This document shows, piece by piece, positions 3,256 through 64,000 of a DNA stretch of 64,000 nt. The position numbers and the translations under genes are program-made. How positions within the stretch are numbered: the first letter of the stretch is position 1; the number at the start of each line of letters is the position of its first letter. Source of the stretch: an uncultured Actinomycetes bacterium (lineage in GTDB: Bacteria; Actinomycetota; Thermoleophilia; Solirubrobacterales; Thermoleophilaceae); NCBI GenBank assembly GCA_963724205.1, contig CAVRTK010000004.1, positions 303,830 to 367,829 of the forward strand, written 5' to 3'. Below the pieces are notes generated by a model that saw nothing but the letters and a program-made list of their open reading frames with translations, was not told the DNA's origin and searched no databases.

Positions 3256-3297
3256 GGGGGCACCGTTCGCCGTTTGCGCCCGATGCCCTGCGCGGGC

Positions 3298-20503: not shown

Positions 20504-20507
<4 letters not shown>
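19691..20507 (-). CDS. trpA: tryptophan synthase alpha subunit, frameshifted
   Basis: [46 protein letters not shown]...; [34 protein letters not shown]; C-terminal [16 protein letters not shown]. The ATG overlaps the trpB stop (ATGAGTGA). At least three frames. Confidence 0.8.
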
Positions 20508-21674
<1,167 letters not shown>

Positions 21675-21699
21675 GCGGCCTCCTGCGGCGCGTCGGGGT

Positions 21700-22372: not shown

Positions 22373-22439
22373 TGCGTTCCATGGTGGCAGGTGGACGCTG
22401 AAGCGCGGCCTCGCCGCAGGGCGGGCGCGCCCGGGCCGG

Positions 22440-23637: not shown

Positions 23638-23689
23638 CGGGGGGTGATTGTGGGCGGGGTGCCTAAGACGGGACTTAACGGCTAGACTG

Positions 23690-26029: not shown

Positions 26030-26196
26030 GCCGCGACCCTCCTCCTCCCGGCGCGCTCGCCGATCCGGTACGCGTGGCAGCCCGCGACCGCGAACGCGGC
26101 CGGCCGCCCCTCGATCCGCTCCGGCGTCACCAGGATAGCGCGCGCCCGCCGCGGCCCGGGCCAGCCCGGGCGGCGCGGCGGCCGCCGCCATCGCCG

Positions 26197-27121: not shown

Positions 27122-27123
27122 GG

Positions 27124-28081: not shown

Positions 28082-28189
28082 CTCCCATGGCATGGTACGT
28101 GGCCGTGGGCTCACGCGGCTTGCCGGTCCTGGGTGGCCAGTTCCCGCCGCCCGTCACCCGCGGCCTCGTCTACATTTCATCGGTTCTGT

Positions 28190-35094: not shown

Positions 35095-35144
35095 GAATTC
35101 CCTCCTCGGAAGACCGGAGGGACGGTTTTACACCACCTGGCCGA

Positions 35145-35954: not shown

Positions 35955-35957
35955 CGC

Positions 35958-36989
35958 TCAGACCGCCGCCAGCTTGTTCGTGCGCTCCACGTACCGCTCC
36001 ATCGCGTCGGACGCCGCCCCCGAGTCGATCGCCTCGCGGGCGGCGGTCACGCCGCCGGCCAGCGAGTCGGCGGCACCGCCCACGTAGATCGCCGCGCCGG
36101 CGTTCGCCAGCGTCAGCTCGCGCTCCGGGCAGGTCTCGCCGGACAGCACGGAGCGGGCGATGCGCGCGTTCTCTTCGGGCACGCCGAAGCGAATGGCGTC
36201 CGCGGGCACTCGTTCGACCCCCAGCTCCTCGGGCGTCACTGCGTAGCTGTCGATCTCCCCATCCCTCAGCTCGACACAGCGGGTCTCGTCCGAGACGCTG
36301 ATCTCGTCGAGCCCATCGACGCTGGAAACTACCAACGCGCGCCGACCCCCCAACTCGCCGAGCGCCGCCGCGATGGTCTCCAGGAAGCTGGGCTCGGAGA
36401 CGCCGATCACCTGCCGCTCGGCTCCTGCCGGGTTGGTCAGCGGGCCGAGGAAGTTGAAGATCGTGCGCACCGCGAGCTCCTTGCGCACCGGCACGACGTG
36501 GCGCATCGCCATGTGGTGGTGCGGCGCGAACATGAACCCGAAGCCGACCGAGCGGATGCAGTCGGCGACGGCGTCCGGCTCCAGGTCGATCTGAGCTCCC
36601 AGTGCCTCGAGCAGGTCGGCGGACCCGGACTTGCCGGTGGCCGAGCGGTTGCCGTGCTTGGCGACCGTGCAGCCCGCGCCGGCCGCCACGAAGGCGGCGG
36701 TGGTCGACACGTTGAACGTGGGCCGTCCGCCGCCCGTGCCGGCGGTGTCGAGCAGCGCGGCGCGATCGCCGACGTCGACCGACCGGGCGAGCGACCGCAT
36801 GGTCTGGGCCAGCCCCACGATCTCGTCGACGGTCTCGCCCTTCGTGCGCAGCGCGATCAGGAACGCGGCCGCCTGCGCCTCCGACGTGCGCCCCTCCATG
36901 ACCTCGCGCAGCACCGCGGCGGCCTCCTCGCGCGCGAGCGCCTGGCCGGAGGCGAGCCGGTCGATCGCCTGGGTGAGGGTGTCGTTGGG

Positions 36990-36992
<3 letters not shown>
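35958..36992 (-). CDS. trpD: anthranilate phosphoribosyltransferase
   Basis: Intact 344-aa ORF. LDTAGTGGGRPTFNVSTTAAFVAAGAG...KHGNRSATGKSGSADLLEALG. Confidence 0.9.
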
Positions 36993-37560
<568 letters not shown>

Positions 37561-41462: not shown

Positions 41463-42181
41463 TCCGGCCGCTCCGCTATCACTCCGAAGATCAGCGCGTT
41501 CAGCCGCCGCGACTCGCGGCTCGTCAAGCGGTCGGCCAGGACGATCAGCAACTGCATGACATAGCCGACCGGCCGGTGCGCACCGGGGGGCAGCTTCCAC
41601 AGCACGGCGTCCTGGACGAGCTGAAGCCCCGTCGCCCCGAGGCCGATGACCCCCTCGAAGCGCCGCACCTCGAAGCCGGCGTCCTCGACCGCTCGGCGGA
41701 GTCCCTGGCAGGTCCAGCGCCAGTAGTCGACGGGATCGGGGTGCCAGACGAACATCCCGTGCGTCGTCAGCAGGAGGCGGCCGCCGGGCCGCAGGACGCG
41801 AAAGGACTCGCGCAGGTAGGTCTCGGGGTCGCCGACGTGTTCCAGGACCTGCGTCGAGATGACCACGTCGCAGCTTGCGTCGGCGACCGGCACCGTCCCG
41901 TCGGGAGCGATATGCACGTTCGCGTCGTCGTTGCCCGGCAGGTCCGCAGCCAGGTAGTCCGCGTCGGCCGGGAAGAGGTGCCGGTAGGGAAGCTCCGCAC
42001 AGCCGTAGTCGAGGACCCGGCGGGGGTGCGGCAGATCACGAGCGAGGATCTCGATGGCCGCCGGCAGCACTCGGGCGAGGTACGCGAGCCGATGCCAGCG
42101 TGGGACTGTGCGGACGTTCGGCCGGTCCGCGGCAAACGTGGGCACGGGCGGGATCGTACGAGGTCGCGCGCGGGCCCGCAT
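41461..42181 (-). CDS. class I SAM-dependent methyltransferase (Methyltransf_11-like)
   Basis: VLDYGCAELPYRHL...DVVISTQVLEHVGDPETYLRESFRVLRPGGRLLLTT. The true start is probably internal; the 42181 start would sit 15 bp from the divergent flippase start. Confidence 0.8.
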
Positions 42182-42195
42182 GCCACCCTTCGCAC

Positions 42196-43665
42196 ATGGA
42201 GGCGAGCGAGAGCCTGCGCGTCCGTGCCGCTCGCGGCACGATGGTCAACGCGGCGTTCGAGGTCGGGCTCCAGGCGCTGAGCCTGCTCAAGGGCTTCGTC
42301 ATCGCTGCGTTCCTCACCCGCACCGAGTTCGGGCTCTGGGGGATCCTCGTCGTCACGATCGGGATGCTGGCCTGGCTGAAGGAGGTGGGGATCAGCGAGA
42401 AGTTCGTCCAGCAGGACGAGCCGGACCAGGAGGTCGCGTTCCAGAAGGCGTTCACGTTCGACATGGCCACGAACCTCGCGCTGATGGCGCTGATGCTCGT
42501 CCTGCTGCCGCTGTTCGCGTTGCTCTACGACCAGTGGGATCTGATCGCACCCGGCCTCGTGATCATCGCCACGCTGCCCGCCTACTCCCTGCGCGCCCCC
42601 GCCTGGATCTACTACCGCGACATGCGCTATGCCCGCCAGCGCCTGCTCGAGGCGGCCGACCCGGTGGTCGCGTTCGCGGTGTCGGTCGCATGCGCGATCG
42701 CCGGCCTCGGCTACTGGAGCCTGGTGGTCGGTGTGTTCTGTGGGGCCTGGGCGGCGGCCCTGGTCGCGGTCGCGGCATCGCCCCACCCGATCCGGTGGCG
42801 CTGGCACCGGGCGTCGGCGCGCGAATACTTCTCGTTCTCCTGGCCGCTCTTCGTGGCGAGCGTGTCCGGGCTCATGATCCCGCAGCTCTCGGCGCTGTTC
42901 GGCAACGCGATCGTGGGTCTGGCCGGCGTGGGCGCGATCGCGCTGGCGGCCACGATCTCCAACTACACCGACCGGGTCGACCAGGTCATCACCTGGACGA
43001 TCTACCCCGCGATCTGCCGCGTCAGCGACCGGGTGGACCTGATGTTCGAGGCGTTCGTCAAGACCAACCGTCTGACCCTGATGTGGGGCCTGCCGTTCGG
43101 GATCGGCGTGGCGCTCTTCGCGGACGACCTGGTCGACTACGTGATCGGCGCCGAGTGGGAGCCTGCCGTCGGGATCATCCAGGCTTTCGGGCTCATCGCC
43201 GCGCTCAACCACATCGGCTTCAACTGGGCGGCGTTCTACCGGGCGCGGGGCGACACCCGGCCGCTGGCCGTGTCGGCGCCGATCGTGCTCGCCGCGTTCG
43301 CCGCGTTCGCGCTGCCCGGCATGATCGCCTGGGGCCTCGACGGCTTCGCGGCGGGCCTGGCGCTGATGGCACTCACCTCGCTGGTCGTCCGCACCGTCTA
43401 CCTGCGCCGGCTGTTCCGCGGCTTCCGGATGCTCCCCCACGCCGTGCGCTCGATCGCGCCGACGGTGCCTGCCGTCGCCGCCGTGCTGATCGTCCGCCTG
43501 TTGGTCGACCAGCGCACGGCGGGCATCGCGGCCGCCGAGCTGGTCCTGTACCTGGCCCTCACGGCGGCTGCGACGCTGTGGCTCGAGCGCGCGTTGCTGC
43601 GCGAGGCGATCGGCTACCTGGCCGGACGCGGCGCCCCGGCGGATGCCGTCGCGGCCCGCGCCTGA
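42196..43665 (+). CDS. Wzx-like oligosaccharide flippase / polysaccharide biosynthesis protein (MOP superfamily)
   Basis: Intact protein of about 490 aa with 12–14 hydrophobic helices, starting MEASESLRVRAARGTMVNAAFEVGLQALSLLKGFVIAAFLTRTEFGLWGILVV..., the typical PST-family N-terminus. Confidence 0.8.
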   Translation: MEASESLRVRAARGTMVNAAFEVGLQALSLLKGFVIAAFLTRTEFGLWGILVVTIGMLAWLKEVGISEKFVQQDEPDQEVAFQKAFTFDMATNLALMALMLVLLPLFALLYDQWDLIAPGLVIIATLPAYSLRAPAWIYYRDMRYARQRLLEAADPVVAFAVSVACAIAGLGYWSLVVGVFCGAWAAALVAVAASPHPIRWRWHRASAREYFSFSWPLFVASVSGLMIPQLSALFGNAIVGLAGVGAIALAATISNYTDRVDQVITWTIYPAICRVSDRVDLMFEAFVKTNRLTLMWGLPFGIGVALFADDLVDYVIGAEWEPAVGIIQAFGLIAALNHIGFNWAAFYRARGDTRPLAVSAPIVLAAFAAFALPGMIAWGLDGFAAGLALMALTSLVVRTVYLRRLFRGFRMLPHAVRSIAPTVPAVAAVLIVRLLVDQRTAGIAAAELVLYLALTAAATLWLERALLREAIGYLAGRGAPADAVAARA

Positions 43666-43690
43666 GGCCCCCGCACTACGCTGCCCCGGG

Positions 43691-44401
43691 ATGGACGTTC
43701 TCGAGCACGCCGGCCAGATCTCCTGGTACCACGCGATGGAGCTGGAGCCCGGGCGCAAGACCGACGCGATGTTCGACCTGGAGCCGTTCGTACACCGCTA
43801 CGGGCTGCCGGAACGGCTCGACGGGCTGCGCTGCCTCGACGTCGGCACCTGGGACGGCTACTGGGCGTTCGAGATGGAGCGCCGAGGCGCGGCCGAGGTG
43901 GTCGCGCTCGACCTGGACGACGAGCGCGAGCTCGACTGGCCCCCGCGCCGGCGCCCGGCCACGTTCAACGAAACGCCCCGCGGCGCGGGCTTCCGGCTGG
44001 CGCACGAGGCCTTCGACTCGAAGGTCGAGCGCGTGGTCCGGTCGATCTACGAGGCGTCGCCCGACGAGCTCGGGAAGTTCGACCTGGTGTTCTGCGGATC
44101 GGTGCTGATCCACCTGCGCGACCAGTTGCTCGCGCTCGAGCGGATCGCCGGGCTGTGCCGCGGCACGTTCATATCGGCCGAGGCCTACGACCCGCTCACC
44201 CGCCTGCTGCCGATCGCCGTGTCGCGCTATCGCGCCGACGTCGACGAGGACGTGGTCTTCTGGCGGCCCAACCCGCGCGCCTGGCGCCGGATGCTGTGGA
44301 CCGCGGGATTCGACCGGGTGGAGCGCCACGGGATGTTCAAGCTGCAGGCGGCCGCGGGCTGGTCGGTCCCCCACGTCGTCCATCACGCCCACACGAACTG
44401 A
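43691..44401 (+). CDS. class I SAM-dependent methyltransferase
   Basis: LRCLDVGTWDGYWAFEM (motif I); KFDLVFCGSVLIHLRDQLLALERIAG. Intact ORF. The start is taken at MDVLEHAGQISWYH. Confidence 0.7.
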   Translation: MDVLEHAGQISWYHAMELEPGRKTDAMFDLEPFVHRYGLPERLDGLRCLDVGTWDGYWAFEMERRGAAEVVALDLDDERELDWPPRRRPATFNETPRGAGFRLAHEAFDSKVERVVRSIYEASPDELGKFDLVFCGSVLIHLRDQLLALERIAGLCRGTFISAEAYDPLTRLLPIAVSRYRADVDEDVVFWRPNPRAWRRMLWTAGFDRVERHGMFKLQAAAGWSVPHVVHHAHTN

Positions 44402-44404
44402 CCG

Positions 44405-44814
44405 ATGCCCGTGGACGCCGGGGCCGCCGCTCTCCAGATCCGCGTCGCCCGGCCGACCGACCGCCTGGACGAGGTGCGGCGCTTCTACTGCGACGGCCTG
44501 GGGCTGGACGAGCTCGGCTCGTTCGACGACCACGACGGCTACTCGGGCGTGTTCATCGGGCTCCCTGGCACGGACCTGCACCTGGAGTTCACTTCCCACA
44601 CCGACGGGTCCCCGTGCCCGGCGCCCACCGCCGACAACCTGCTGGTCTTCTACGTCGGGTCGGTGGAGGCGCGCGACGGACTGGTCGCCCAGCTCGCCGG
44701 CATGGGCGTTACCACGTGCCGCCGGAGAACCCGTACTGGGAGTCGGTGTCTGCGCTGACGTTCGAGGACCCGGACGGCTGGCGGGTCGTGCTCGTGCCGA
44801 ACGCGGGGATCTAG
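44405..44814 (+). CDS. VOC (glyoxalase/bleomycin-resistance) family protein, C-terminal frameshift about 44710
   Basis: LQIRVARPTDRLDEVRRFYCDGLGLDELGSF...HLEF. The C-terminus ...FEDPDGWRVVLVPNAGI* is in a second frame. Confidence 0.65.
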
Positions 44815-48481: not shown

Positions 48482-48525
48482 CCGGGCGATTCTAGGAAGC
48501 GCCCACCCAGATACTGTCCGCGACC

Positions 48526-49944
48526 GTGGACTCGCAAGAACTGGCCTTCGCGGGCGCGGCGCGGCAGGCCGAGCTCATCCGATCGGGCGACGTGTCCCCG
48601 CGTGAGCTCGTCGACCTGTGCCTGGACCGGATCGAGCGGCTCGATCCGCACCTCAACGCCTTCCGCGTCGTCTGGCCCGAGCGGGCCCGCGCCGAGGCCG
48701 ACCAGGCCACCTCCCGCGTGCGGGCCGGCGAGGACCGGCCGCTGCTCGGCGTCCCGGTCGCGATCAAGGACAACGTCGACATGGCCGGCGAGGTCACGAC
48801 GCACGGCACCGGCGCGTTCGTCACGCCCGCGGCCGAGGACTCGGAGGTCGTGCGGCGGCTGCGCGCCGCGGGTGCCGTGCTGATCGGCAAGACACTGCTG
48901 CCGGAGTTCGCGCTGTGGCCGAGCACGCAGTCGGCCACCTGGGGCGCGACCGTCAACCCCTGGAACGCGGACTACGGCCCCTGCGGGTCGAGCGGCGGGG
49001 CGGGCAGCGCGGTCGCGGCGGGCATGGTCGGCATCGCGCACGCCTCGGACGGCGGCGGGTCGATCCGCTCGCCGGCGTCGGCCTGCGGGCTGTTCGGGCT
49101 GAAGCCGCAGCGCGGGCGCGTGTCGCTCCTGCCCGACCTGGAGCACTGGATGGGGCTCTCGGTCTACGGCTGCGTGTCGCGCACGGTGGCCGACACCGCG
49201 CTCTACCTCGACGCCGTCGCCGGCCCGGTCGCCGGCGGCCGCGGCGAGGCGTCGCCGCCCGCGCCGTCGCGCTCGTTCGCCGAGGCCGCCGCGCTGTCCC
49301 CCGGCCGACTGCGCATCGCGGTGTCGACGCGCACGTCGAACCCACAGGAGAAGGTCGACCCGCAGGTGCAGCGTGCGCTCGACCAGACCGCCGACCTGCT
49401 GCGCACGCTGGGGCACGACGTGCGCGAGGCGGACCCCGACTTCGGGCCGCTGCCGCTGCTCGCGCTGTTCGGGCCGCGCTACGTGCGCGGGGCGAAGGAC
49501 GACATCGACAAGGCGGAGCGCCCGGAGATGCTCGAGCGCCGCGTGCGCGGGGTCGGGCGCCTCGGCGCGCTGACGCCGGACGCGGTGCTGGCGAAGGTAC
49601 GGGCCGACGCCAAGCCCTGGACGGCCCAGGTGCAGCGGCTCTGGGAGGACCACGACGTCCTGCTCCAGCCGACGATGCCGCGGCTGCCGAACCGCCTGAA
49701 CGAGCAGGAGGGCCTGGGCACGGCGCGGATGCTCCTGACCAGCGGGCGCTTCGTCGCCTACACCGCGCCCTGGAACATCACGGGTCAGCCGGCGGCGTCG
49801 GTGCCCGCGGGCTGGAGCGACGAGGGGCTGCCGATCGGCGTGCAGATCGTCGGGCGCCCCAACGACGAGGCGACGCTGCTGTCGCTGGCGGCACAGGTGG
49901 AGCGGGAGCGGCCGTGGGCGGACCGGCTGCCGCCGAGCGCCTGA
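48526..49944 (+). CDS. amidase-signature family amidase
   Basis: Intact 472 aa. GVPVAIKDN; [33 protein letters not shown] (amidase signature with the Ser-cisSer-Lys triad context). Confidence 0.85.
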
Positions 49945-49968
49945 GCTCACCGACCTAGACTTCGGGTC

Positions 49969-50388
49969 GTGTTCCCAGACCTGAGCTTGGTCCCCCAGGA
50001 CGGCCGCGCGTTCGCGGTATTCGGCCTTGAGTCCGAGCGCCGCGGCGCACTGGCCGATGCGCTCTCCTGGCGGATCACGAGCCGCTTTCAGGCCGACTCG
50101 CTCGAAGCCGACACCGTGCTCGAGCTGCGGGCGGCGGGCGCTCTGGCCGACCGCCTGGACGAGCATCGGGACGTCGAGGGCCTGGCCTCGGTACGGGTCA
50201 ACGCCGACCAGGTTCGGATGCTGATCGAGGCCGTCGTCGCCTACCTGTCCGAGCGCGACCCCGACAGCTACCAGCCGCCGGAGCAGCGCGCCCGGCTGGA
50301 CAAGCTGAACACGCTGGTCGACCCGCTGTTCGACCTGGCCTTCGAGCTGGACAAGGCCGACAAGGTCCTCGGCGGGTCCGCCTTCTGA
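49969..50388 (+). CDS. hypothetical protein (139 aa)
   Basis: Intact, non-repetitive acidic protein; no recognisable domain. Confidence 0.4.
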   Translation: MFPDLSLVPQDGRAFAVFGLESERRGALADALSWRITSRFQADSLEADTVLELRAAGALADRLDEHRDVEGLASVRVNADQVRMLIEAVVAYLSERDPDSYQPPEQRARLDKLNTLVDPLFDLAFELDKADKVLGGSAF

Positions 50389-52070: not shown

Positions 52071-52091
52071 GGGCCGACCGCCCCTCGTCGG

Positions 52092-52976
52092 TCAGTCGAT
52101 CCCGAGGCGGTCGAGCAGGCCCTCGTCCGCGCGCCAGCCCTTGCGGACGCGGACGCTCAGGTCCAGGTGCACGCGCCGGCCGGTCAGCTTCTCGATCTCC
52201 TGACGGGCGGCCGTGCCGATCGCGTGCACCATCTGGCCGCGCTTGCCGATCAGGATGCCCTTCTGCGACTCGGTCTCCGCCCACAGGCGCGCGACCACGA
52301 GCAGCAGCCCGTCGTCGCGCTCCTCGACCTCGTCGACCTCGACCTCGACGGCGTGCGGCAGCTCCTCGCGGGTCCGCATCAGCACCTGCTCGCGCACCAG
52401 CTCGGCCAGCCGGACCTCCTCCGACATGTCGGTGCGCTCCTCGGGCGGGTACAGGTACTCGCCCTCGGGCATGCGCGACGTCAACTCGTCGACGATCTCG
52501 GCGACCCCGGCGCCGCGCAGCGCGCTGACGGGGTAGATCTCGGCGTCCAGGTCGAGCTCCGCCGCCTGCTGGAGCACCTCGACCGTGCGCGCGGTGTCGA
52601 GCAGGTCGACCTTGTTCAGCGCGATGACGGCAGGCACGCCGGCGTTGCGGATCGCAGCGGCGATGAAGCGGTCGCCGGGCCCGACGCCCTGCTGGCCGTT
52701 CAGGACGAACAGCGCGGCGTCGGACTCGCCCAGCTCGCGCTCCATGCGACGTTGCATCCGCTCGGTCAGCGGGTCGCGCGGGCGCTGAACGCCGGGCAGG
52801 TCGACGATCACCAGCTGGTGGTCGTCGGTGGTCGCGATGCCGCGGATGGCGCGCCGGGTCGTCTGCGGGCGGTTCGAGACGATCGCGACCTTCTCCCCCA
52901 CGATCGCGTTCAGGAGCGTCGACTTGCCGACGTTCGGGCGGCCCGCGAGCGCGACGAAGCCGGACCGGACGCTCAC
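52092..52976 (-). CDS. era: GTPase Era
   Basis: GFVALAGRPNVGKSTLLNAIVG (G1); DLPGV (G3); NKVD (G4); C-terminal KH domain (GILIGKRGQMVHAIGTAARQEIEKL). Probable GTG start overlapping the ybeY 3' end. Confidence 0.85.
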   Translation of the reverse strand: MSVRSGFVALAGRPNVGKSTLLNAIVGEKVAIVSNRPQTTRRAIRGIATTDDHQLVIVDLPGVQRPRDPLTERMQRRMERELGESDAALFVLNGQQGVGPGDRFIAAAIRNAGVPAVIALNKVDLLDTARTVEVLQQAAELDLDAEIYPVSALRGAGVAEIVDELTSRMPEGEYLYPPEERTDMSEEVRLAELVREQVLMRTREELPHAVEVEVDEVEERDDGLLLVVARLWAETESQKGILIGKRGQMVHAIGTAARQEIEKLTGRRVHLDLSVRVRKGWRADEGLLDRLGID

Positions 52977-53365
52977 CCGAGCTCCTCCATCACGCGGTCC
53001 TGTAGGGCGAGCATCTCGCCGTCGTCGGTCTCGTGGTCGTAGCCGCACAGGTGCAGGACGCCGTGGACGACCGCCTCGTCCAGGCGCTCGGTGTGCTCGG
53101 GGCAGATGACGACGTCGCCGAGCTCGCGGGGGCCGGGCGCCGGGCCGGTCTCGTCGATCGGGAACGACAGGACGTCGGTCGGAGCGTCCCGGCCGCGGTG
53201 CTCGGCGTTCAGCCGCCGGATGGCGTCCTCGTCCACGAAGTCGACCGCCAGATGGCCGTCGCGCACGCCCGCGGCGGCGAGCGCGGCGCGGGCTGCTCGC
53301 TCGAAGCGCTCCGGGTCGGTGCCGTTCAGGCGACCGCCGTCGTTGATCTCGATCTCGAGCGACAC
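52973..53365 (-). CDS. ybeY: rRNA maturation endoribonuclease YbeY
   Basis: Intact 130 aa. HGVLHLCGYDHE is the YbeY zinc-binding HxxxHxxxxxH motif. Confidence 0.85.
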   Translation of the reverse strand: MSLEIEINDGGRLNGTDPERFERAARAALAAAGVRDGHLAVDFVDEDAIRRLNAEHRGRDAPTDVLSFPIDETGPAPGPRELGDVVICPEHTERLDEAVVHGVLHLCGYDHETDDGEMLALQDRVMEELG

Positions 53366-53370
53366 GCCGC

Positions 53371-54354
53371 TCAGCGCGGGCGGCGCTGCTGGGCGGCGCG
53401 CAGCTCAGGAGTGTGCTGCGACTGATAGGAGTCGTAGGCCTCGACGATGCGCTGCACGAGCTTGTGGCGCACCACGTCCTCGCCGCCGAAGCGGACGAAG
53501 TCGATGCCCTCGACCTCGCCCAGGATGTCGCCGATCACCACGAGGCCGGAGCGCTGGTTCTTCTCCAGGTCGATCTGGGTGATGTCGCCGGTCACGACCA
53601 TCTTCGAGTTGAAGCCGAGCCGGGTCAGGAACATCTTCATCTGCTCGGGCGTCGTGTTCTGCGCCTCGTCGAGGATGATGAACGAGTCGTTGAGCGTGCG
53701 GCCGCGCATGTACGCGAGCGGCGCGACCTCGATCACGTTGCGCTCGAGGTGCTGGTTGACCTTCTCCGGCTCGAGCATGTCGTAGAGCGCGTCGAACAGC
53801 GGGCGCAGGTACGGGTCGACCTTGGCCATCAGGTCGCCGGGCAGGAAGCCGAGCCGCTCGCCGGCCTCGACGGCCGGCCGGGTCAGGACGATGCGGTTGA
53901 CCTCGCGGCGCTGGAGCGCGGCGACCGCGCAGGCCACGGCCAGGAACGACTTGCCGGTGCCCGCCGGGCCGATGCCGACGGTGATCGTCTCGCGGCGGAT
54001 CGCGTCGACGTAGCGCTTCTGGTTGACGGTCTTCGGCGCGACCTTGGTCGAGCGGTGGCGCCAGATCACGTCCTCCAGGATCCGGCTGGGCGACTCGTGC
54101 GCGTCGAGCGCGCTGGTGATCGCCTCGATCGTCCCGGGGATGATCTCGTGGCCCTGGCGGACCAGGTCGGACAGCTCGCGGACGACGGTCTCGGCCATCC
54201 CGACCTCGGCGTCGCCGCCGTCGATCGTCAGCACGTTGCCGCGCAGGAACACGTCGGCGTCGAGGTGGCCCTCGAGCGACTTCATCACGACGTCGCCCGG
54301 ACCGGCCAGCTCGGTCGCGACTTCGTTGGGGAGCTCGAGTTGGCGACGGGCCAC
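53371..54354 (-). CDS. phoH: PhoH-family ATPase
   Basis: ITVGIGPAGTGKSFLAVACAV (Walker A); FIILDEAQNTT (Walker B); conserved C-terminal region. The GTG start overlaps the yqeY stop by 1 nt. Confidence 0.85.
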   Translation of the reverse strand: MARRQLELPNEVATELAGPGDVVMKSLEGHLDADVFLRGNVLTIDGGDAEVGMAETVVRELSDLVRQGHEIIPGTIEAITSALDAHESPSRILEDVIWRHRSTKVAPKTVNQKRYVDAIRRETITVGIGPAGTGKSFLAVACAVAALQRREVNRIVLTRPAVEAGERLGFLPGDLMAKVDPYLRPLFDALYDMLEPEKVNQHLERNVIEVAPLAYMRGRTLNDSFIILDEAQNTTPEQMKMFLTRLGFNSKMVVTGDITQIDLEKNQRSGLVVIGDILGEVEGIDFVRFGGEDVVRHKLVQRIVEAYDSYQSQHTPELRAAQQRRPR

Positions 54355-55793: not shown

Positions 55794-55943
55794 CGGCGCG
55801 CGCTCGTTTCACTCAGCACGGCCTCCCGCGGAGCGCCGGCGGCAGAGTCGCTCCCGGCCGCCCGGGTGGGCGCTTTTCGTCTCGTGTATGGAGACGAAAG
55901 GCGCCCAGCGGTCTGATCGAGGCGCGGGCACTAGGGTCCCGGC

Positions 55944-56631
55944 ATGGCGCTCGGCGGGATCAAGGTCGCGACCTTCGACTGCTACGGCACGCTCGTCGAC
56001 TGGGAGGGCGGCGCGGCGTCGTTCCTCTACGACCTGTGCATGCGGCACGGCGACCCCTCCCCTCCCCCCGGCCGTGAGCTGCGGGACCGCTGGGAGGCGA
56101 TCCAGTTCGAGATCGTCTCCGGCGCCGACTACCGGCCCTACAAGCAGGTGCTGGCGGAGTCGCTGCAGGCCTGGATGGAGGAGCGCGGGCTGGAGTACGA
56201 CCCGGTCGAGGGCGACGCCCTCGTGCGCGCGATCCGCTCCTGGCAGCCGTTCCCGGACACCCGCCCGGCGCTCGACGCGCGCCCGCGAGGCCGGCCTGCG
56301 GCTGGTGATCCTCTCGAACACCGACCGCGACATCATCGAGCACACGGTCCGCCACATCGGGGTCCCGTTCGACGACGTCGTGACCGCCGAGGACTGCGGC
56401 GCCTACAAGCCCGCCGACACAGTCTTCGCCCAGGCGCTCGAGCGCATCGGGGAGCCGCCGGACGCGGTGCTGCATGTGGCGTTCGGCTTCAAGTACGACC
56501 TGCCGCCGGCCGAGCGCGCCGGCATGCGCACGGCGTGGGTCAACCGCCATGCCGAGCGGCCGCCCGGCGACGCCCGCCGCGACCACGAGTGGCGCGACCT
56601 GTGGGGCCTGGCGGAGCTGGCGACGGGCTGA
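55944..56631 (+). CDS. HAD-superfamily hydrolase (haloacid dehalogenase type II-like), frameshift about 56285
   Basis: KVATFDCYGTLVDWEG (motif I DxYGT); ...LRLVILSNTDRDIIE (motif II S/T); GAYKP (motif III K); C-terminal part in a second frame. Confidence 0.75.
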
Positions 56632-56641
56632 CCGGCGCGGG

Positions 56642-58684
56642 TCAGCCCGCGCGGACCTTCATCGACTTCGCCGCCGCGGCTGACAGCACGGGGTTGCCGC
56701 CGAACTTGGCCTTGACCGCGAGCCGGCCGTTGCCGAGCGAGCGCCGGGTCGGGAACGCGATCGACGTCCTGAACGTGCAGTCGGAGCGCAGGGTCGCGGT
56801 CTGCGGCAGCCGCAGCTTGCCGACCCGGAACTCGATCGACACCGACCCGCCCGCGGTGCACGCCTGCTCGGGGGTCACCCCGGCCGGCAGCAGCACGGAG
56901 CCGCTCGTCGTGAAGCGGTAGGGCCGCTTGCGGTCGCGCTTGGGGGTCGTGCTCGCGGTCAGCCTCGGCGCGAACCGGCGCACCTCGACGCCGCGGAAGT
57001 CGACCGCCGTCTGGCCCGCCCCGTCGACCGCGATCGCGATCAGCGTGTTGCGGCCGACATCGCCGCCGTTCGGCGAGTACGCGCAGTCGTAGGGCGCGGC
57101 CTCGTCGGTGCAGACGACCTTGCCGTCGTCGAGGAAGGCCACCCGCGCGACCCCGCGGTCGTCAGCGGCGTCCGCCGTGATGTGCGGCGACCCGGCCGGG
57201 TCGATCGCCGTGCCCTCGGCCGGCCCCGTTATCGCAACCGCCGGCGGCCGGTCCTCGGGCTCGGCGGGCGCCTGAGGGGTCTGCTGCGGGGCTGCTGTTG
57301 CTGCTGCTCGGGCGCGGTGCCGCGGAGGCTGATGGCCTGCGATGTCCGGTCTGCCCGGCCGAGTCGAAGGCGATGACGGTGATCGCCTGGGACGGGCCCG
57401 CGGCCGGGCGCGGTGACGCTGGCTGTGTACGGCGGCGTCGTGTCCGGCGGCCGACCGGCGTCGTGCCGCGGAGGAACTCGCACCTTCGCGACGTCGAAGT
57501 CGTCCGTGGCGGTCGCGCTGACGGCACCGTCGAGCCCGGGCTCGGCCTCGGTGCCGTCGGCGGGCGACACGGCTGATCTCCGGCGGGTCGTCGGGCTGGG
57601 GCGCGGGCGCGGCCGGGGCGCCGTCGGGCGCGGTGTCGAAAGTCGCTGGCGTCCACGTTGCTCGTGACCCAGTCGCCGTGCTCGGCGAGGCGTGGCGTGG
57701 GAGGCAGGACGCACGGGCAGGCGCGTCGGCCTCCGACGGGCCGCCGGGATCGCCCCACCAGTTGTTCTTGGCGTCGATGCTCGCCCGCTGCGGACCGTGG
57801 GCTCGCAGCTCGGGTCGGATCCGTGCGCCGAACACGCCGTAAGCGTTGCCCTGGATGTCGTTGTCGTTGACGAGCGCATCCGGCGGGCGCGTTGAGGAAC
57901 CGGACGCCCGCGGCGGACGCCGGGTCGCTGTCGTTGCGGTTGTCGGCGATCAGGTTGCCGTTCGACCGTGACCGTGCGCCCGCGTGCCGTCCGCGATTCG
58001 CGGATGCCGTCCTGACCCGATCCGGAGCTGTGCGGCCGCTCCCGCGGATGACGCTGTCGCTCACCTGCGTGGTCGAGCCCGCCGCCGTCCGACACGGCCG
58101 AGATACCGAGCGGCCCGTAGCCCTCGATCAGCGAACCGGCCACGGTGAGCGTCGTCGCGGCCGCGCCGTCGATCCGCGGAGATCCCCGGGCTGACCGCGT
58201 CGCCCAGGTCGGTGATCCGCGACGCGCGCACGGCTCCCGTTCGACACCGTCGAAGCGAGATGCCCGCCGGCACGTCGGCCGTTCCCGTCCACGATGTCAC
58301 GCCGGAGATGTCGACGGCCCGGTGCCGGTCGCGGTGATCAGGAACGCCGACGCGGAGGCCGGCTCGATCCGCACGAGGTCCGCCCCTGCGCCCTTGATCG
58401 TCAGCGACTGCGTCACGCTGATCGGCGCCTCGGAGTACGTGCCCGGGCAGATCGCGATCGTCGTCGCCGGCGGTCCGCCGCCGCGACCGCTGCCGCGACC
58501 GTACGTGAACTCGCGCGTTCGGGCACTCGGCCTTGCCGCCGTCGTCGACGACAAGCGTCGCCGCAGCCGCGGGCGAAGCGGCCACGGCAAGGCCGACAGC
58601 CGCCAGCGCGGCCGCCCGCGTCAGGCGCGCAATGGAGTCGATGCGGATTCCTCCCCGGAGAGCGAGTCGCTTGCAGCCCGGCAT
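56642..58684 (-). CDS. secreted right-handed beta-helix (CASH/NosD-like) repeat protein with C-terminal Ig-like domain, heavily frameshifted
   Basis: Signal peptide (IARLTRAAALAAVGLAVAASPAAAATL). Beta-helix hallmarks (SLTIKGAGADLVRIEP; NGNLIADNRNDSD...NDNDIQGNAYGVF; NNWWGDPGGP). C-terminal ~200 aa beta-rich Ig-like region (PAVAITGPAEGTAIDP...ADDRGVARVAFLDDGKVV). Fragments lie in at least five frames. Confidence 0.55.
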
Positions 58685-58884
58685 CCCACCGGGCTGCGGC
58701 CATCGTAGAGGCGGCAGGCGGCAATGGCGACCGACTGCCATACGCGCTTAACAAAACGATCGGCGCGGGCCGAAAACCGCTCTGTGCTGCGGTTCTCGGG
58801 CCCGCTTGAGCAGGCCGCGGGACTCCCTGGACATCCGTCCGCCCGCCCTGCGTCGACCCTCGGGACCGTCCGACCACACTGGGA

Positions 58885-60333
58885 GTGCGGCTCCTGTCCG
58901 TCATCGCGTGCTCCCTTTTCCTGGCGCTGCCGGCGTCTGCGTCCGCGCGCGCCAACTTCGGCGCGGGCGTAGTCGGCCAGGCCGAGTCCCACGGCGCCGA
59001 CCCGGCCGTGGTGGTCGACGCGCACCCGGAGCTGCCCGCCCCGAGCGGCGGCTTCACCGGCAGGCCGCTCGCAAACGCAGCGCGGGCGAAGCTGACCGGC
59101 GGCGGAGTCCGGTTCCGGCTGCCGACCGGCTGGTGCGGCGACCAGCGCGCGACCGACGACCGCGACCACGAGATGGACAACGGCGCGTTCCGCTACCACG
59201 CGATCTACGCGCTGCCGAGCGACGCCGCGGACCGCTTCCGCCAGTTCGCCGACAGCATCCAGGCCGACTCGTTCCAGGCCTCCGCGCTGCTCGAGCAGTC
59301 GTACGGCCGCGCGATCCGCTTCGACCTCGGAACCAGCTGCGGCCGCCAGTACCTCGACATCAGCACCGTCCGCCTGCCCTACACGACCGCACAGATGCAG
59401 GGGCTGGCCTCGACGCCCACCGGCACGCTCGAAGCCGTGTCCAACGGCATCAACGCCGCGGGCTTCCCGACCATCCGCCCGACCGACACCGTCGAGTCCG
59501 CGTCGACCCGCAACCGCAACTTCGTCGTCTGGATCGACGCCCCGGCGCCCGCCGGCGCGTGCGGCCAGGCCACCAGCTACGACGACCAGACGCGCGACCC
59601 GTCGAACCTGAACAACCTGGGCGGCAAGGTGGCCGTGGTCTTCCCCAACGGCAACGGCGCGTTCTGCTCGTCGAACACGGTCCGCCACGAGATCGGGCAC
59701 AACCTGGGCGCCCTCCAGCCGACCGCGCCGCACGCGTTCGACGGCGCCCACTGCAACGACTCGTACGAGGACACCATGTGTTACTCGAACGCGCCGCGCA
59801 CCCAGAACGGACAGCGCGGCATGTTCTTCGACTACAGGAACGACGACTACTGGGACCCGCCCCAGGGCGCCTCGCTGCCCTGGTGGACCGCGAACCTGAA
59901 CCGCTTCCTGTGCCCGGACGCGGCCTGCAACATCGCGCCGGACGACGGCACCACGGTCGTCCAGGGGTCGGACCCCGACGGCGACGGCGTGACCGACGAC
60001 ACCGACGTCTGCCCCGACGTGGCGGACCCGGACCAGCGCGACTCGGACGGCGACGGGCGCGGCGACGCCTGCTCCCCGGCCGTGCGCCAGTCGGCCGCGA
60101 AGAAGGCGACCGTCAAGCTGAAGGCCAAGCGCTCGAAGAAGGGCTGGAAGGTCACCGTGTCGGCGCGGGGCAGCGGCAGCGCGGTCGTGACGGTGCGCTG
60201 CCGCCGCAGGTCCCACGGCCCGGTGAAGACGGTCCTGTCGAAGAAGACGAAGCTGCCGCGCACGCTGCGAAGCACCGTGCGCTGCGCGACCAAGCCGCGC
60301 GCGGCGATCCTCCAGAGCGGCGACTCCGCCTAG
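58885..60333 (+). CDS. secreted zinc metallopeptidase (HExxH, metzincin-like) with thrombospondin type-3 (TSP3) Ca-binding repeats
   Basis: Intact 482 aa. Signal peptide MRLLSVIACSLFLALPASASA. Zinc motif VRHEIGHNLGAL. Two TSP3-like repeats (DPDGDGVTDDTDVCPDVADPD; DSDGDGRGDACS). Basic C-terminal tail. Confidence 0.75.
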   Translation: MRLLSVIACSLFLALPASASARANFGAGVVGQAESHGADPAVVVDAHPELPAPSGGFTGRPLANAARAKLTGGGVRFRLPTGWCGDQRATDDRDHEMDNGAFRYHAIYALPSDAADRFRQFADSIQADSFQASALLEQSYGRAIRFDLGTSCGRQYLDISTVRLPYTTAQMQGLASTPTGTLEAVSNGINAAGFPTIRPTDTVESASTRNRNFVVWIDAPAPAGACGQATSYDDQTRDPSNLNNLGGKVAVVFPNGNGAFCSSNTVRHEIGHNLGALQPTAPHAFDGAHCNDSYEDTMCYSNAPRTQNGQRGMFFDYRNDDYWDPPQGASLPWWTANLNRFLCPDAACNIAPDDGTTVVQGSDPDGDGVTDDTDVCPDVADPDQRDSDGDGRGDACSPAVRQSAAKKATVKLKAKRSKKGWKVTVSARGSGSAVVTVRCRRRSHGPVKTVLSKKTKLPRTLRSTVRCATKPRAAILQSGDSA

Positions 60334-60345
60334 CCGCGTCTCCGC

Positions 60346-60657
60346 TCAGCCCTCGCGGCCGGGCGGCACGACCTCCTCGACGACCTCGAAGAGCCCGTCG
60401 ACGATCAGCTCCTCGACGTGCTCGGCCATCGCCGCCTGGCGGCGGGACTCGACGCCGGCCACGTCCTCGCGGTAGCCGCTGATGTCGTCGACCCCGGCAT
60501 CGAGGAACCCGAACGAGATCACCACGTCCGGGTTCCGCGTGTCGCGCACGTGGTAGGCGCGCTGTAGGGGTGGCGGGAACTCCTCGGGCTCCCATGCGGC
60601 TCGGAACGCCTCGTAGGCGCCCGGCTTGAGCTTGCGGACGCTCAGTGCGCAGAGCAT
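60346..60657 (-). CDS. hypothetical protein (103 aa), possibly an alpha/beta-barrel (ABM/Dabb-like) fold
   Basis: Intact, non-repetitive. No firm domain assignment. Confidence 0.4.
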   Translation of the reverse strand: MLCALSVRKLKPGAYEAFRAAWEPEEFPPPLQRAYHVRDTRNPDVVISFGFLDAGVDDISGYREDVAGVESRRQAAMAEHVEELIVDGLFEVVEEVVPPGREG

Positions 60658-60666
60658 CGCGTGCCC

Positions 60667-61029
60667 CTACGCGTCCCACGCCTGGAGGCCGCGCTGGCGC
60701 GCGATGCGCCCGTCGCGGAGCTCTGCCGTGGTCATGCACAGGACCTTGTTCCCGTCCGGGTAGGTGCAGTCGATCGTGTACGACAGGCGGTCCCCATCGA
60801 CGACGATGCCGCCGACCTCGTGGGTCATGTCGCGGCTCGCGACGTCGGCGAGGAAGTCGCCGATCTGCTCGCGGCCCTGGATGACGAGCGGCTTGCTCGG
60901 CGGGTTGAGGCTGTCGACGACCTCGACGGTCGCGTCGTCGGTGAACAGCTCGACCTGGGCGGCCGCGTTGCGCTCCTCGATCGCGCGCTTGAGCGCCTGT
61001 GCATCGAACGTTGTTGCGGCGGTGGCCAT
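60667..61029 (-). CDS. SnoaL-like / NTF2-family protein
   Basis: ATG at 61029 preceded by AGGAGG. MATAATTFDAQALKRAIEERNAAAQVELFTDDATVEVVD...GNKVLCMTTAELRDGRIARQ, 121 aa. The ORF track extends N-terminally into non-protein-like sequence. Confidence 0.6.
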   Translation of the reverse strand: MATAATTFDAQALKRAIEERNAAAQVELFTDDATVEVVDSLNPPSKPLVIQGREQIGDFLADVASRDMTHEVGGIVVDGDRLSYTIDCTYPDGNKVLCMTTAELRDGRIARQRGLQAWDA

Positions 61030-61167: not shown

Positions 61168-64000
61168 ATGGTTCGCGTCCGGCTCCTGGGAAGCCTCGCG
61201 ATCGAGGTCGACGGCCGGGCGGTGGAGCCGCCGGCCAGCCGCCGCGCGCAGGCGCTGCTGGGCTGGCTCGCGCTGAATCCCGGCATGCACGCGCGCGGGC
61301 AGGTGGCCGGCCGCTTCTGGCCGGACGTGCTCGAGACGAGCGCCCGCCAGAGCCTGCGCAGCGCCGCCTGGTCGCTCCGGCGCGCGCTCGGCCCGGACGG
61401 CGAGGGCGCGCTGCGCGCGCTGCGGGCGGAGATCGGCCTCGACGGGGTCGCCACCGACCTGGCCGAGTGGCAGGAGCACGTCGCGGCCGGCCGGCTCGAG
61501 GAGGCGCTGGCGCTCGAGCGCGGCGAGCTGCTCGCCGGGCTCGACGACGACTGGGTCCACGACGCGCGCGAGGAGCACCGGGGGCGGCTCGGACACGTGT
61601 TGGCCCGTCTGGGCGACGAGGCCGAGGCGGCCGGCGACCTGGAACGCGCGGTCGAATGGACGCGGCGCTGGGTCGCGCTGGACGGGGTGGCCGAGGCCCC
61701 GGCGCGTTCGCTGATGCGGCGGCTCGCCGCGGCGGGCGACCGCTCGGCTGCCCTGGCCGTGTACTCCCGCCTGCGTGAGCGCATGCGCCTGGAGCTGGGC
61801 GTGTCGCCCTCCGCCGAGACCCGCGGCCTGGCCGACGAGCTTCGCGAGGCCGGCGCGGAGGCGGCCACGGCCGGGGCGCCGGAGAGGTCCGCCGACGCCG
61901 ACCCCTGGTGGGCCGCACGGAGGAGCTGCGCAGGCTGGAGGCGCTCCGCCGCGGCGGGCGCGGCGGAGTCGTCGTGCTGAGCGGCGAGGGCGGGATCGGC
62001 AAGACGCGGCTGGCCACCGAGCTGCTGCGCCGCGCCGGCGCGGCCGGCGCCCGGACGTCCGTCTGCGCGGCGCTCGACATCGGCGGAGCCGCTCCGTTCT
62101 CCCTGTGGGCGGAGATGCTGCGCGAGCTCGTGCGCGACCTCCCCGCTCCGCCTTCCGGCGCAGCCTGGCCCGGCGACCTCGCGCGCCTGGTGCCGGAGCT
62201 CGGCGCTCCCGCAGCCCCCGTACCGCCCGAGCTCGAGCGCGCGCGCCTGTTCGAGGCGACCGTGCAGCTCTTCGAGTGGGCGAGCAGCGGCCGGTCGCTG
62301 CTCGTGCTGGTCGACGACCTCCACCTGGCCGACCAGGCGAGCATCGAGCTGCTGGCCTACGTCGGGCGGCGCACGCCCGGCATGGACGCGGTGATCGTCG
62401 CCACCCGGCGCGACGTCCCGCGCCGCGCCGAGGTGGACGCCGCGATCGACGCGCTGGCCCGCCGGGGCGCGCTGCTCGACGACCTTCGCGTCGACCCTCT
62501 TACAGCCGAGCACGTCGAGGAGCTCGTGCGCACGGTCGCGGAGCTGGACGACACGGAGGTGGCGCGCGTCGCCGCCGTGGCCGAGGGCAACCCGCTGCTG
62601 GCAGTGGAGAGCGCGCGGGCGGCGGAGAGCGGCGAGCACGGGCCGCCGGCGACGCTGCGGGCGAGCGTGCGCGCACAGCTCGCGACCCTGGACGACGACG
62701 CTCGCGACTTGGCGGAGCTGCTGGCAGTCGCCGGGCGGGAGCTCAACCGCCGTGAATGCTCCGCGGCCTGCGACGGCGACGCCGAGCCGGCCGAAGCGGC
62801 GACCGCGGCGGCGGAGTGCGGGCTGCTGAGCGCCGCGGAGGGACGGATCGGCTACCGCCACGGGCTGCTCCGCGAGGCGGTCTACGAGCAGCTGCCCGAC
62901 CCGCGGCGGGCCTGGCTGCACGAGCGTCTGGCCGACGGCCTGGAGGCGTCGGCCGCGCCGGGCGCCGGGCTCCGCGACGCCGAGGTGGCCCGCCATCTGC
63001 TCCTGGCCGGGAACGGCCCACGCGCCGTCGAGCATCTGCGCCGCGCGGCCACCCACGCGCGCGGGCTCGCCTGTCTGCCCGAGGCAGCCGAATACCTGCG
63101 GCAGGCCGTCGAGATCGCCCCCGACGACGCCGATTCCTGGCTCGAGCTGGCCGAGATCGAGGCGTGGGGCGAGCGGAGCGAGGCGTCCGAGGAGGCGTTC
63201 GGGCGCGCGCTTGCGCTGCTCGATCCCGGGCCGGCCGAGCCGCGCGTCGACGCCTGGCTGCGGCGGGCGCGCTGGTTCCGCGGTCCCACCTGCTCCCCGA
63301 CGAGCTCGCTCGCGTCGTACCAGCGGGCGCTCGAGCTGATGGACGCCGCCGGGCTGGACGCGCCGCGCGAGCGAGCCGAGGCGCTCGCCGGCTCCGCGTG
63401 GTGCCACGCGGCGGGCGGCGACCCGGGGCTGGTCGACTCGTTGCTCGTGCGCGTGCACGAACTGGTCGGCGACGAGCGCGAGGACGACATGCTCGTCCAC
63501 GACATCGGCGCGGCCCGGCAGTTCGCGCTGATGCGGAGCGGGCGCTTCGAGGACTCGTACGCGCCCGGCATCGCCGCCGGCGAGGCCGCGCAGCGCGCCG
63601 GCAGGATGGACATGGCCTACGGGGCGTGGGGCAACATCGCCGTCGCGGCAGCCGCGGGCGGCGAGCTCGACCGCGCTCTGGAGTTCGCCGACCGGTCGCT
63701 GCACTCGGTGCACGGGACCTGCACGCCGATCGAGTGCGGGGTCCTCTCCGCCCGCTGCCAGATCCTGGCCCGCTCGGGCCGCCTGGACGAGGCGCACACG
63801 ACCGCCGAGTCCGAGCTGGCCCTGGCCGACCAGCTCGACCGGCCCGACCTGGTCGGCGCGGCCCACTACGACCTGGGGCTGGTGGCGCTCGCCGCGAAGC
63901 GCTGGGACGAAGCGGCCGGGCTGATCGCTTCCGCGCTCGCGGGCGGCGGCCGGTTCAGCCGCCCGCTGGCCCGCCTGGCGCGCGCGGAGGCGCTGGCGCG
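61168..64000 (+). CDS. AfsR/SARP-family transcriptional regulator (winged-helix plus BTAD, NB-ARC ATPase, TPR), 3'-truncated by the window end; frameshift about 61915
   Basis: MVRVRLLGSLAIEVDGRAVE...RRAQALLGWLALNPG (SARP winged helix); BTAD (RFWPD...SLRSAAWSLRRAL); Walker A VLSGEGGIGKTRLA; LVLVDDLHLAD (Walker B); Ala/Leu-rich TPR-like tail. Confidence 0.8.

Follow-up and report, generated by a model that had tools for sequence, protein, structure and literature searches.

Within a 64,000-nucleotide stretch of an uncultured Thermoleophilaceae genome (GenBank assembly GCA_963724205.1, contig CAVRTK010000004.1, positions 303,830 to 367,829; hereafter the window), we observe two divergently transcribed genes that encode a metzincin-like protease and a protein combining a right-handed beta-helix with immunoglobulin (Ig)-like domains, here called the partner. 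The G+C content is ~72% across the whole window. The protease open reading frame (ORF) occupies 58885 to 60333 of the plus strand (482 aa) without a frame break, and the minus strand from 56642 to 58741 is coding but spread across all three frames. Taken together, the locus represents an uncharacterized, atypical metzincin-like family with a lineage-specific partner. A previous sequence-only reading of this DNA is largely right at the protein level, while we find no support for its regulatory proposal, in which an inverted repeat acts as a shared operator. The features of the two genes are as follows.

58885–60333, plus strand: protease gene, 482 aa, GTG start (ATG in orthologs), intact; an identical protein (P0001) is already in public collections.
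58885–58947, plus strand: predicted protease signal peptide, aa 1–21, MRLLSVIACSLFLALPASASA, cleavage motif ASA/R, as read from the sequence.
58951–59124, plus strand: putative pro-region, aa 23–80, with invariant H36-G37-x-D39; low confidence in the structural model.
59125–59934, plus strand: catalytic domain, aa ~81–350, metzincin-type fold, 8 conserved Cys.
59686–59709, plus strand: zinc-binding helix motif HEIGHNLG (H268, E269, H272, G275), followed by A-L-Q278 at the position of the third metzincin His/Asp.
59737–59784, plus strand: FDGAHC (aa 285–290) and EDTMCY (aa 295–300); D286 or H289 is the candidate distal third ligand, and M298 the candidate Met-turn.
59971–60075, plus strand: single thrombospondin type-3 (TSP3) repeat, aa 363–397, DPDGDGVTDDTD ... 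DSDGDGRGDAC, two Cys.
60097–60318, plus strand: basic C-terminal beta domain, aa 405–478, ~75 aa, two conserved Cys, predicted local distance difference test (pLDDT) score ~92.
56642–58642, minus strand: partner gene, with signal peptide, right-handed beta-helix, two Big_7 Ig domains and a conserved C-terminal domain; ~22 frame breaks within 57299–58513.
58559–58642, minus strand: predicted partner signal peptide from a putative, conserved ATC start, IDSIARLTRAAALAAVGLAVAASPAAAA.
57041–57244, minus strand: second Big_7 Ig domain, in frame; Pfam Big_7 E value 1.3e-13, 51.8 bits against a cut-off of 24.1.
56645–57040, minus strand: partner C-terminal domain, basic, two invariant Cys, no frame break, 59 of 59 invariant residues kept.

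The protease belongs to a family of more than 530 homologs, all unnamed or annotated as "hypothetical", the few named sources being Thermoleophilaceae metagenome-assembled genomes (MAGs). A scan of species-representative genomes places the family in Thermoleophilaceae, Baekduia, one Jatrophihabitans bin, Acidimicrobiales, and unclassified Actinomycetota. The 150 best matches of an exhaustive profile search, the totals of which are inflated by giant TSP3-repeat proteins, include ~75 cluster representatives with the catalytic domain. Neither the protease nor the partner has an NCBIfam model. Distant members of the protease family carry C-terminal PKD domains in place of the TSP3 and basic modules.

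Signal peptides had been proposed for both products, and both indeed show canonical Sec-type N-termini, judged by sequence features and conservation in 44 homologs: MRLLSVIACSLFLALPASASA followed by R in the protease and (M/I)DSIARLTRAAALAAVGLAVAASPAAAA followed by T in the partner. Each combines a basic n-region, a hydrophobic core (Kyte-Doolittle 2.35–2.6), and AxA motifs; in the protease, the 12-aa Kyte-Doolittle maximum is 2.6 and the pattern MRxxxxxxCLLAxAxPAxAxA is conserved in the homolog alignment. Conserved Cys pairs and the calcium-binding repeat are supporting signs that the protein would be exported. Two other export routes were considered for the protease and rejected: a lipoprotein signal (VIAC, aa 6–9), since the Cys lies too near the N-terminus and is not invariant, and a Tat signal (several homologs start with MRR), since the S/T-R-R-x-F-L-K context is absent.

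The catalytic domain displays the metzincin architecture of a five-stranded sheet and active-site helix within its N-terminal sub-domain. Its structural neighbors (scores in parentheses) are the glycopeptidase Amuc_1438 (9.7), ADAM17 (9.1), ADAM8 (9.0), OgpA (8.7), atrolysin C (8.7), ADAMTS5 (8.2), and CpaA (7.8), with fragilysin, archaemetzincin, mirolysin, and ulilysin lower in the same list. At the sequence level, the Pfam family Reprolysin_3 is matched by 38 of the 44 homologs at an E value of ≤0.01 (best, 1.3e-5), and a PDB sequence-profile search gave nothing significant for the catalytic domain. Metzincins are defined by the motif HEXXHXXGXXH/D plus a Met-turn (PMC6949598). The protease instead reads HEIGHNLGALQ, with Q278 at the last position in place of His/Asp. 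Across the 44-homolog alignment HExxHxxG, F285-D-G-x-H-C290, and E295-D-T-M-C-Y300 are invariant, the 8 Cys are conserved and Q278 is nearly invariant, and this zinc-site signature holds down to 35% identity among tblastn matches. M298 is followed two residues on by Y300, as in astacins and serralysins, within a part of the model (aa 280–360) where pLDDT is <50; M298 is likely the Met-turn, and D286 or H289 would be the probable distal third zinc ligand. Because the fold is present, the extended motif is not, and a Met-turn is likely, we describe the protease as metzincin-like with a non-canonical zinc site. The metzincin-like assignment of the sequence-only reading is thus borne out by a metzincin-type fold together with weak Reprolysin-like Pfam similarity. 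The pro-region may act as a latency segment. Its H-G-x-D (aa 36–39, 58990–59001) resembles the C-G-x-P-D core of the matrix metalloproteinase (MMP) cysteine switch, with His replacing Cys.

Downstream of the catalytic domain, the protease carries one TSP3 repeat, in which the motif DxDxDGxxDxxD occurs at aa 363–374 and 386–397, with C376 and C396. The earlier claim of calcium-binding TSP3 repeats is supported as to their presence but not as to the plural, as a single repeat (aa 363–397) holds two DxDxDG sites. Pfam TSP_3 scores 23.8 bits on the window protease, just below its cut-off of 25, and the protease family profile matches the TSP3 repeats of COMP (E value, 1.8e-14), thrombospondin-2 (~1e-10), and the bacterial OmpA-family protein 5wtl (1.8e-4). 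The repeat is present in 31 of the 44 aligned homologs, and at least one DxDxDGxxD motif in 65 of 118 full-length homologs; approximately one-third of the family lacks it and has a low-complexity linker in its place. It would be an optional, calcium-stiffened inter-domain linker. Neither is it the bacterial rarity it had been taken for, because NCBIfam includes TSP3 families from bacteria (MtsC, TraB, and an Omp28-related family, all of which give partial matches to this repeat) and PDB entry 5wtl is a bacterial OmpA-family protein with TSP3. What had been called a basic C-terminal tail is basic (net charge, +23 over aa 401–482, 82 aa; family mean, +21.6 over the last 75 aa), but it is a confidently folded beta domain (pLDDT, ~92) rather than a tail. 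This domain probably holds the protease on an anionic surface, either the cell envelope or a polymeric substrate.

With a stitched query, the partner retrieves 35 homologs of 513 to 955 aa, all but one with a precomputed Big_7 match. Three of them bear names in their source records: "right-handed parallel beta-helix repeat-containing protein", "Ig-like domain-containing protein", and "nitrous oxidase accessory protein NosD". Ortholog P0130 scores above the Pfam cut-offs for Beta_helix, NosD, and DUF1565 and contains five Big_7 copies, and P0121 contains two; the structural model of a partner ortholog reaches a pLDDT of 85.1, and P0121 has low-confidence linkers at aa 462–471. The description of the minus-strand product as a NosD/CASH-type beta-helix and Ig protein is thereby supported, since orthologs pass the Pfam cut-offs, the beta-helix fold is present, and Big_7 matches the window sequence itself (E value, 1.3e-13). 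We rejected an identity with NosD proper, with TIGR04247 scoring 25.8 to 27.8 bits against a cut-off of 300 and without nos gene context, the neighbors being HAD, VIT1, Fur, and SnoaL genes. Right-handed beta-helix folds are typical of polysaccharide lyases, hydrolases, and epimerases, as well as some adhesins. Catalytic residues could not be assigned in the partner, so that a lyase, hydrolase, epimerase, or binding protein are all possible.

The partner's start probably lies at an ATC codon (58640–58642, minus strand) that is conserved in five loci, with an ATG near the same position in locus L004, and that is preceded at 7 nt by the Shine-Dalgarno (SD) sequence GGGGAGG. Translation from this codon yields the canonical signal peptide. 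Gene callers in public records choose assorted upstream starts for the partner and thereby translate its promoter and leader. The C-terminal domain (~105 aa) is also found on its own at the ends of otherwise unrelated proteins on other metagenomic contigs (L027 to L032), which suggests a portable module, perhaps for surface attachment. A C-terminal anchoring domain common to protease and partner was tried and rejected (hhalign probability, 0.3%).

The divergent, adjacent arrangement is observed in the window and in five further metagenomic loci (L002, L003, L004, L023, and L024), whose proteases are 63 to 79% identical to that of the window. In all five partner loci that reach the 5' flank, the protease adjoins the partner. 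The flanks of L004 (patatin, AlkA) are unrelated to those of the others, which argues against mere inherited synteny, and the recurrence of the divergent pairing in five other loci makes a functional link plausible. In the relative L001, by contrast with these loci, a protease of 71% identity directly follows the HAD gene, and no partner is present. The pair is therefore a lineage-restricted but non-accidental unit.

The sequence-only reading had set a completely intact protease against surroundings in which almost everything is frameshifted. The protease is indeed free of frame breaks over all 482 codons, but the remainder was overstated, as Era, YbeY, PhoH, Fur, VIT1, HisIE, and a 470-aa amidase are intact too. 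Compared with the proteins of the syntenic relative L001, trpG, trpE, a glyoxalase gene, yqeY, and the HAD gene are broken, with one or two breaks each. At the ~0.7 breaks per kb of nearby genes, a 1.45-kb gene would come out clean with a probability of ~0.37. A frame-switch map of the whole window, obtained by hidden Markov segmentation of GC3 phase, shows that the breaks are patchy: they are dense at 2900–7400 and 19000–30900, with one per 100 to 250 bp, and clean stretches extend over 33011–36996, 42156–44709, 48490–50386, 52080–54338, and 58885–60333. The dense patch at 19 to 31 kb holds trpB, trpA, trpF, and genes for an HtrA-like protease, MoxR, DUF58, and transglutaminase proteins, the frame-corrected translations of which are well conserved.

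Plain tblastn passed through the partner in one frame and masked its frameshifts, and frameshift-aware dynamic programming was used instead. Aligned in this way to P0121, the partner requires 22 frame changes across 58513–57299 and none in 57298–56645 (the last 217 codons), and is thus not a single gene-length ORF. After frame correction, it keeps 95 of 97 family-invariant residues (36 of 38 where the gene is broken and 59 of 59 where it is clean), and the two that are missing sit at frameshift junctions. Related MAGs carrying the protease family include Nanopore-only assemblies with one round of Medaka polishing (PMC12313526). We consider it very probable that the frame breaks are consensus errors of a noisy long-read assembly rather than gene decay, and these errors may cluster at sites of difference among co-assembled strains. 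An intact protease amid frameshifted surroundings would therefore carry no biological meaning, reflecting patchy consensus errors and not selection. The three best-resolved frameshifts in the neighborhood are single-base insertions relative to L001, at 54582/54583 (yqeY), ~56274 (HAD gene), and ~50925 (glyoxalase gene). They lie in CGAC/ACGA-type contexts and not in homopolymers, which is atypical for classical Nanopore indels, and the error mechanism is therefore not the classical one; a motif-specific, possibly methylation-related basecalling error might lie behind them.

The two genes are separated by a spacer that had been given as 200 bp. Its length depends on the partner start: 143 bp from an ATG at 58741, 197 bp from an ATG at 58687, and 242 bp from the conserved, SD-linked ATC at 58642. 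We aligned the six spacers of the paired loci (window, L002, L003, L004, L023, and L024), and the elements discussed below are these.

58767–58803, no strand assigned: inverted repeat GGGCCGAAAACCGC-n8-GCGGTTCTCGGGCCC, lineage-specific and not conserved.
58747–58755, minus strand: motif TTTGTTAAG (CTTAACAAA on the plus strand), at a fixed distance of 45–46 nt upstream of the partner -10 box in 6/6 loci; overlaps an A-rich stretch.
58702–58730, minus strand: putative partner promoter, -35-like TCGCCA (58725–58730), 17-nt spacer, -10 TACGAT (58702–58707), in 6/6 spacers (TAGGAT in L024).
58650–58697, minus strand: partner 5' leader, with a hairpin (58673–58697), conserved GCAAGCGACTCGC, and SD GGGGAGG (58650–58656).
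58829–58840, plus strand: imperfect palindrome GGACATCCGTCC (consensus GGACAnnTGTCC), beginning ~56 nt upstream of the protease GTG, in 5/6 paired loci.
58871–58877, plus strand: conserved CGACCAC, 8–14 nt upstream of the protease start.

The inverted repeat is present as described earlier, with arms of 14 to 15 nt, two mismatches, 86% complementarity (14-nt arms), and an 8-nt loop, and the A-rich stretch beside it lies at 58747–58760. Its RNA folding energy is -29.9 kcal/mol for the plus strand (z, -3.8); the minus strand, on which the two mismatches turn into G-U pairs, reaches -31.6 kcal/mol (z, -6.0). Counting hairpins with 14-nt arms, at most 2 mismatches, and a loop of 3 to 12, we find 19 in the window, and 9 to 19 (mean, ~13) in ten first-order Markov simulations, from which ~0.04 would be expected per single 200-bp spacer. 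The hairpin is thus real, and its class is not clearly enriched in the window. The repeat is absent from all five orthologous spacers, being replaced by a gap in L002 and L004 and by unrelated inserts in L003, L023, and L024. It is single-copy in the window, and a search for it elsewhere found no similar copy in 281 kb of related loci with up to 6 mismatches allowed. Rfam gave only two chance-level matches over 56000–61000 at an E value of ≤1, none of them for the repeat. The conservation expected of an operator serving a divergent pair is thus not seen at 58767–58803. Since the other spacers have no counterpart, the repeat is, on sequence grounds, a lineage-specific insertion and probably not a shared control element; it sits within a variable segment of the spacer that ranges from no insert in L004 to ~190 nt in L024. 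A small terminator-like hairpin on the minus strand (58760–58773; TCGGC-CCGC-GCCGA followed by TCGTTTTGTT) overlaps the repeat's 3' arm, and the two structures would be mutually exclusive.

The motifs conserved among the aligned spacers, which fall outside the inverted repeat, appear to be better candidates for control sites than the repeat itself. On the partner side, a strict scan of the spacer for the sigma-70 consensus detected no promoter, and the putative promoter is assigned from conservation. All six partner leaders can fold a hairpin of 7 to 10 bp in the same place, a few nt downstream of the -10 box; its stems differ in sequence, and its loop is G-rich (uGGGGAa). The hairpin is followed by conserved GCAAGCGACUCGC and then by palindromic CUCCCCGGGGAG, which contains the SD. 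This hairpin could serve as a translational control element. We do not claim it as an RNA element, given weak covariation (RNAalifold on a MAFFT alignment of the six leaders) and single-sequence z-scores (+1.4 to -3.3) that are not individually significant. On the protease side, sequences similar to GGACAnnTGTCC occur at the same distance upstream in L001 and L005, where the partner is absent, which makes this palindrome a candidate operator or promoter element specific to the protease; it is not enriched in the window. There is no canonical SD at normal spacing before the protease start.

The best explanation of the locus, which we hold to be somewhat better than even, is that two Sec-exported proteins of a divergent pair act jointly outside the cell, with the frame breaks being consensus errors and the inverted repeat not a shared control element. 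In this soil-dwelling, Thermoleophilaceae-like actinobacterium, the genes would be transcribed divergently from the 242-bp spacer, possibly under common regulation. The first product would be a zinc endopeptidase with an adamalysin-like metzincin fold and a disulfide-rich catalytic domain, presumably catalytically competent, and the second a protein built on a right-handed parallel beta-helix of the pectin-lyase or NosD/CASH type. Most likely, they would act together on extracellular protein-polysaccharide material, either for nutrient scavenging or for remodeling of a matrix or envelope; the matrix- or glycan-processing pair of the sequence-only reading may be retained as an inference. Several observations weigh against this explanation. 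Frame breaks in the partner reach ~18 per kb, by far the densest in the window, against ~0.7 per kb nearby. A Gln occupies the canonical third zinc-ligand position of metzincins, and the model is unreliable over aa 280–360 (pLDDT, <50), where the substitute would lie. The Pfam M12B-like matches fall below their curated cut-offs (Reprolysin_3, 20.3 versus 22.4 bits; Reprolysin_4, 16.8 versus 27 bits; Reprolysin_5, 14.5 versus 22 bits). The known paired loci number just six and are fairly close relatives (63 to 79% protease identity); L001 and 17 more distant genomic loci have the protease without the pairing, which means that the protease can do without the partner. That the two proteins are functionally independent, their adjacency in six loci being gene order inherited within one subclade, would fit this confinement to protease homologs of at least 63% identity, as well as the HAD/yqeY-phoH or SnoaL neighborhood that four of the six paired loci have wholly or partly in common. 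Such independence is nevertheless doubtful, as L004 retains the pair amid entirely different flanks, the spacer motifs of both genes are conserved at fixed spacing, and no partner locus with a readable 5' flank lacks the adjoining protease.

A different objection is that the partner is a real, decaying pseudogene next to a protease kept by selection. Its 22 frame changes in 1.2 kb, the lack of a partner in the close relative L001 (loss does occur in the lineage), and the three neighboring 1-nt insertions outside homopolymers, unlike classical Nanopore errors, could all be read in this way. Decay is however very unlikely: no stop codons remain after frame correction and the net frame is preserved, nearly all invariant residues survive in the broken part with both misses at frameshift junctions, and breaks of this kind also occur in housekeeping genes (trpB, trpA, trpE, and yqeY). 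Moreover, the breaks fall only in the part that varies among homologs and spare the conserved C-terminal 217 aa, as expected of a poor consensus over strain-variable sequence. We give equally little credence to the original proposal that the inverted repeat and A-rich stretch form a shared operator or RNA element controlling both genes. The folding energies on both strands, the intergenic and single-copy position, the G-U pairs on the minus strand, the overlapping terminator-like hairpin with its T-run, and an A-rich stretch that overlaps a truly conserved motif speak for the proposal; yet the repeat is missing from the orthologous spacers, the related loci, and Rfam, and its class is barely commoner in the window than in random sequence. 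In position, too, it is upstream of both the putative partner promoter and, by ~80 nt, the protease start, so that neither leader obviously contains it. It is similarly improbable that the protease acts on the partner itself, maturing or shedding a surface-attached beta-helix/Ig protein instead of attacking an external substrate. Sheddases (ADAM17 and ADAM10) are among the structural neighbors, basic C-terminal domains on both proteins could place them at the same surface, and the low-confidence linkers of P0121 are exposed; the protease family is, however, far larger than that of the partner (>530 versus 35 matches) and mostly partner-less. Finally, a more ambitious version of joint action is, taken as a whole, unlikely. 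Here, the protease would found an undescribed metzincin-like family in which the ligand replaced by Gln is supplied by the distal FDGxHC, latency is imposed by a His switch (T-H-G-P-D in the pro-region, likened to the PRCGxPD cysteine switch of MMPs), and a polycationic domain acts as a tether, the protease forming with a glycan-active partner a fixed two-enzyme, matrix-dismantling module within one Thermoleophilia subclade, directed at soil glycoprotein or protein-polysaccharide matrices.

The pair lies within a housekeeping neighborhood, with era, ybeY, phoH, yqeY, fur, VIT1, and the HAD gene upstream; downstream of it follow a 103-aa gene of unknown function, a SnoaL-like gene, and a gene for a BTAD/SARP-type regulator. 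The latter is large (61168–64000, plus strand; BTAD E value, 4e-16), lies three genes downstream of the protease, and appears to switch frame near 61903. The 14-nt-arm scan also found a strong hairpin between the VIT1 and HAD genes (55868–55906; GGGCGCTTTTCGTCTC...GAGACGAAAGGCGCCC, one mismatch, 11-nt loop).

What remains of particular interest is an unnamed actinobacterial family of metzincin-like proteases, fairly large and marked by a deviant zinc-site signature, together with a conserved beta-helix/Ig pairing in one subclade. If the biochemistry holds, a structurally deviant zinc-site arrangement would be added to the metzincins, and a first functional handle would be gained on the soil Thermoleophilia, which are abundant but uncultured and nearly all of whose secreted enzymes lack annotation. 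Two practical lessons also emerge: frameshift patterns in long-read MAGs can mimic the "selective preservation" of a gene, and orthologous spacers separate real control motifs from eye-catching, lineage-specific hairpins.

Among known systems, the protease invites comparison with the adamalysin/reprolysin metzincins (MEROPS M12B; snake venom metalloproteinases, ADAM, and ADAMTS). It differs from them by the Gln at the third-ligand position (HEIGHNLGALQ), by an invariant FDGxHC 8 to 11 residues further on, and by an EDTMCY that follows only 9 residues after. All of its Pfam M12B scores are below cut-off, identity to M12B structures is 9 to 14%, and it has no disintegrin or cysteine-rich domain. 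Likeness to the bacterial metzincin-fold O-glycopeptidases (Amuc_1438 of Akkermansia, OgpA, and CpaA of Acinetobacter) is limited to the general metzincin fold (11 to 17% identity), and no glycan-recognition domain was identified in the protease; a specificity for glycoproteins would thus be a lead and not a result. The partner shares 9 to 18% identity with carbohydrate-active and related beta-helix proteins, including PL6 alginate lyases, chondroitinase B, the epimerase AlgE4, phage tailspikes, NosD/CASH proteins, and the adhesin PfbA. Vibrio cholerae offers a further parallel in a matrix-remodeling enzyme set that includes RbmB, a beta-helix polysaccharide lyase that works beside secreted proteases, with which the pair described here shares the fold only and no further homology. 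ADAMTS proteins carry thrombospondin type-1 repeats, whereas the repeat of this protease is of type 3. Its closest counterparts are the TSP3 repeats of COMP, thrombospondin-1 and -2, 5wtl, MtsC, and TraB, with which it shares the same DxDxDGxxDxxD calcium loops and paired Cys, the difference being that the protease carries a single repeat, as an inter-domain linker that is optional within its family.

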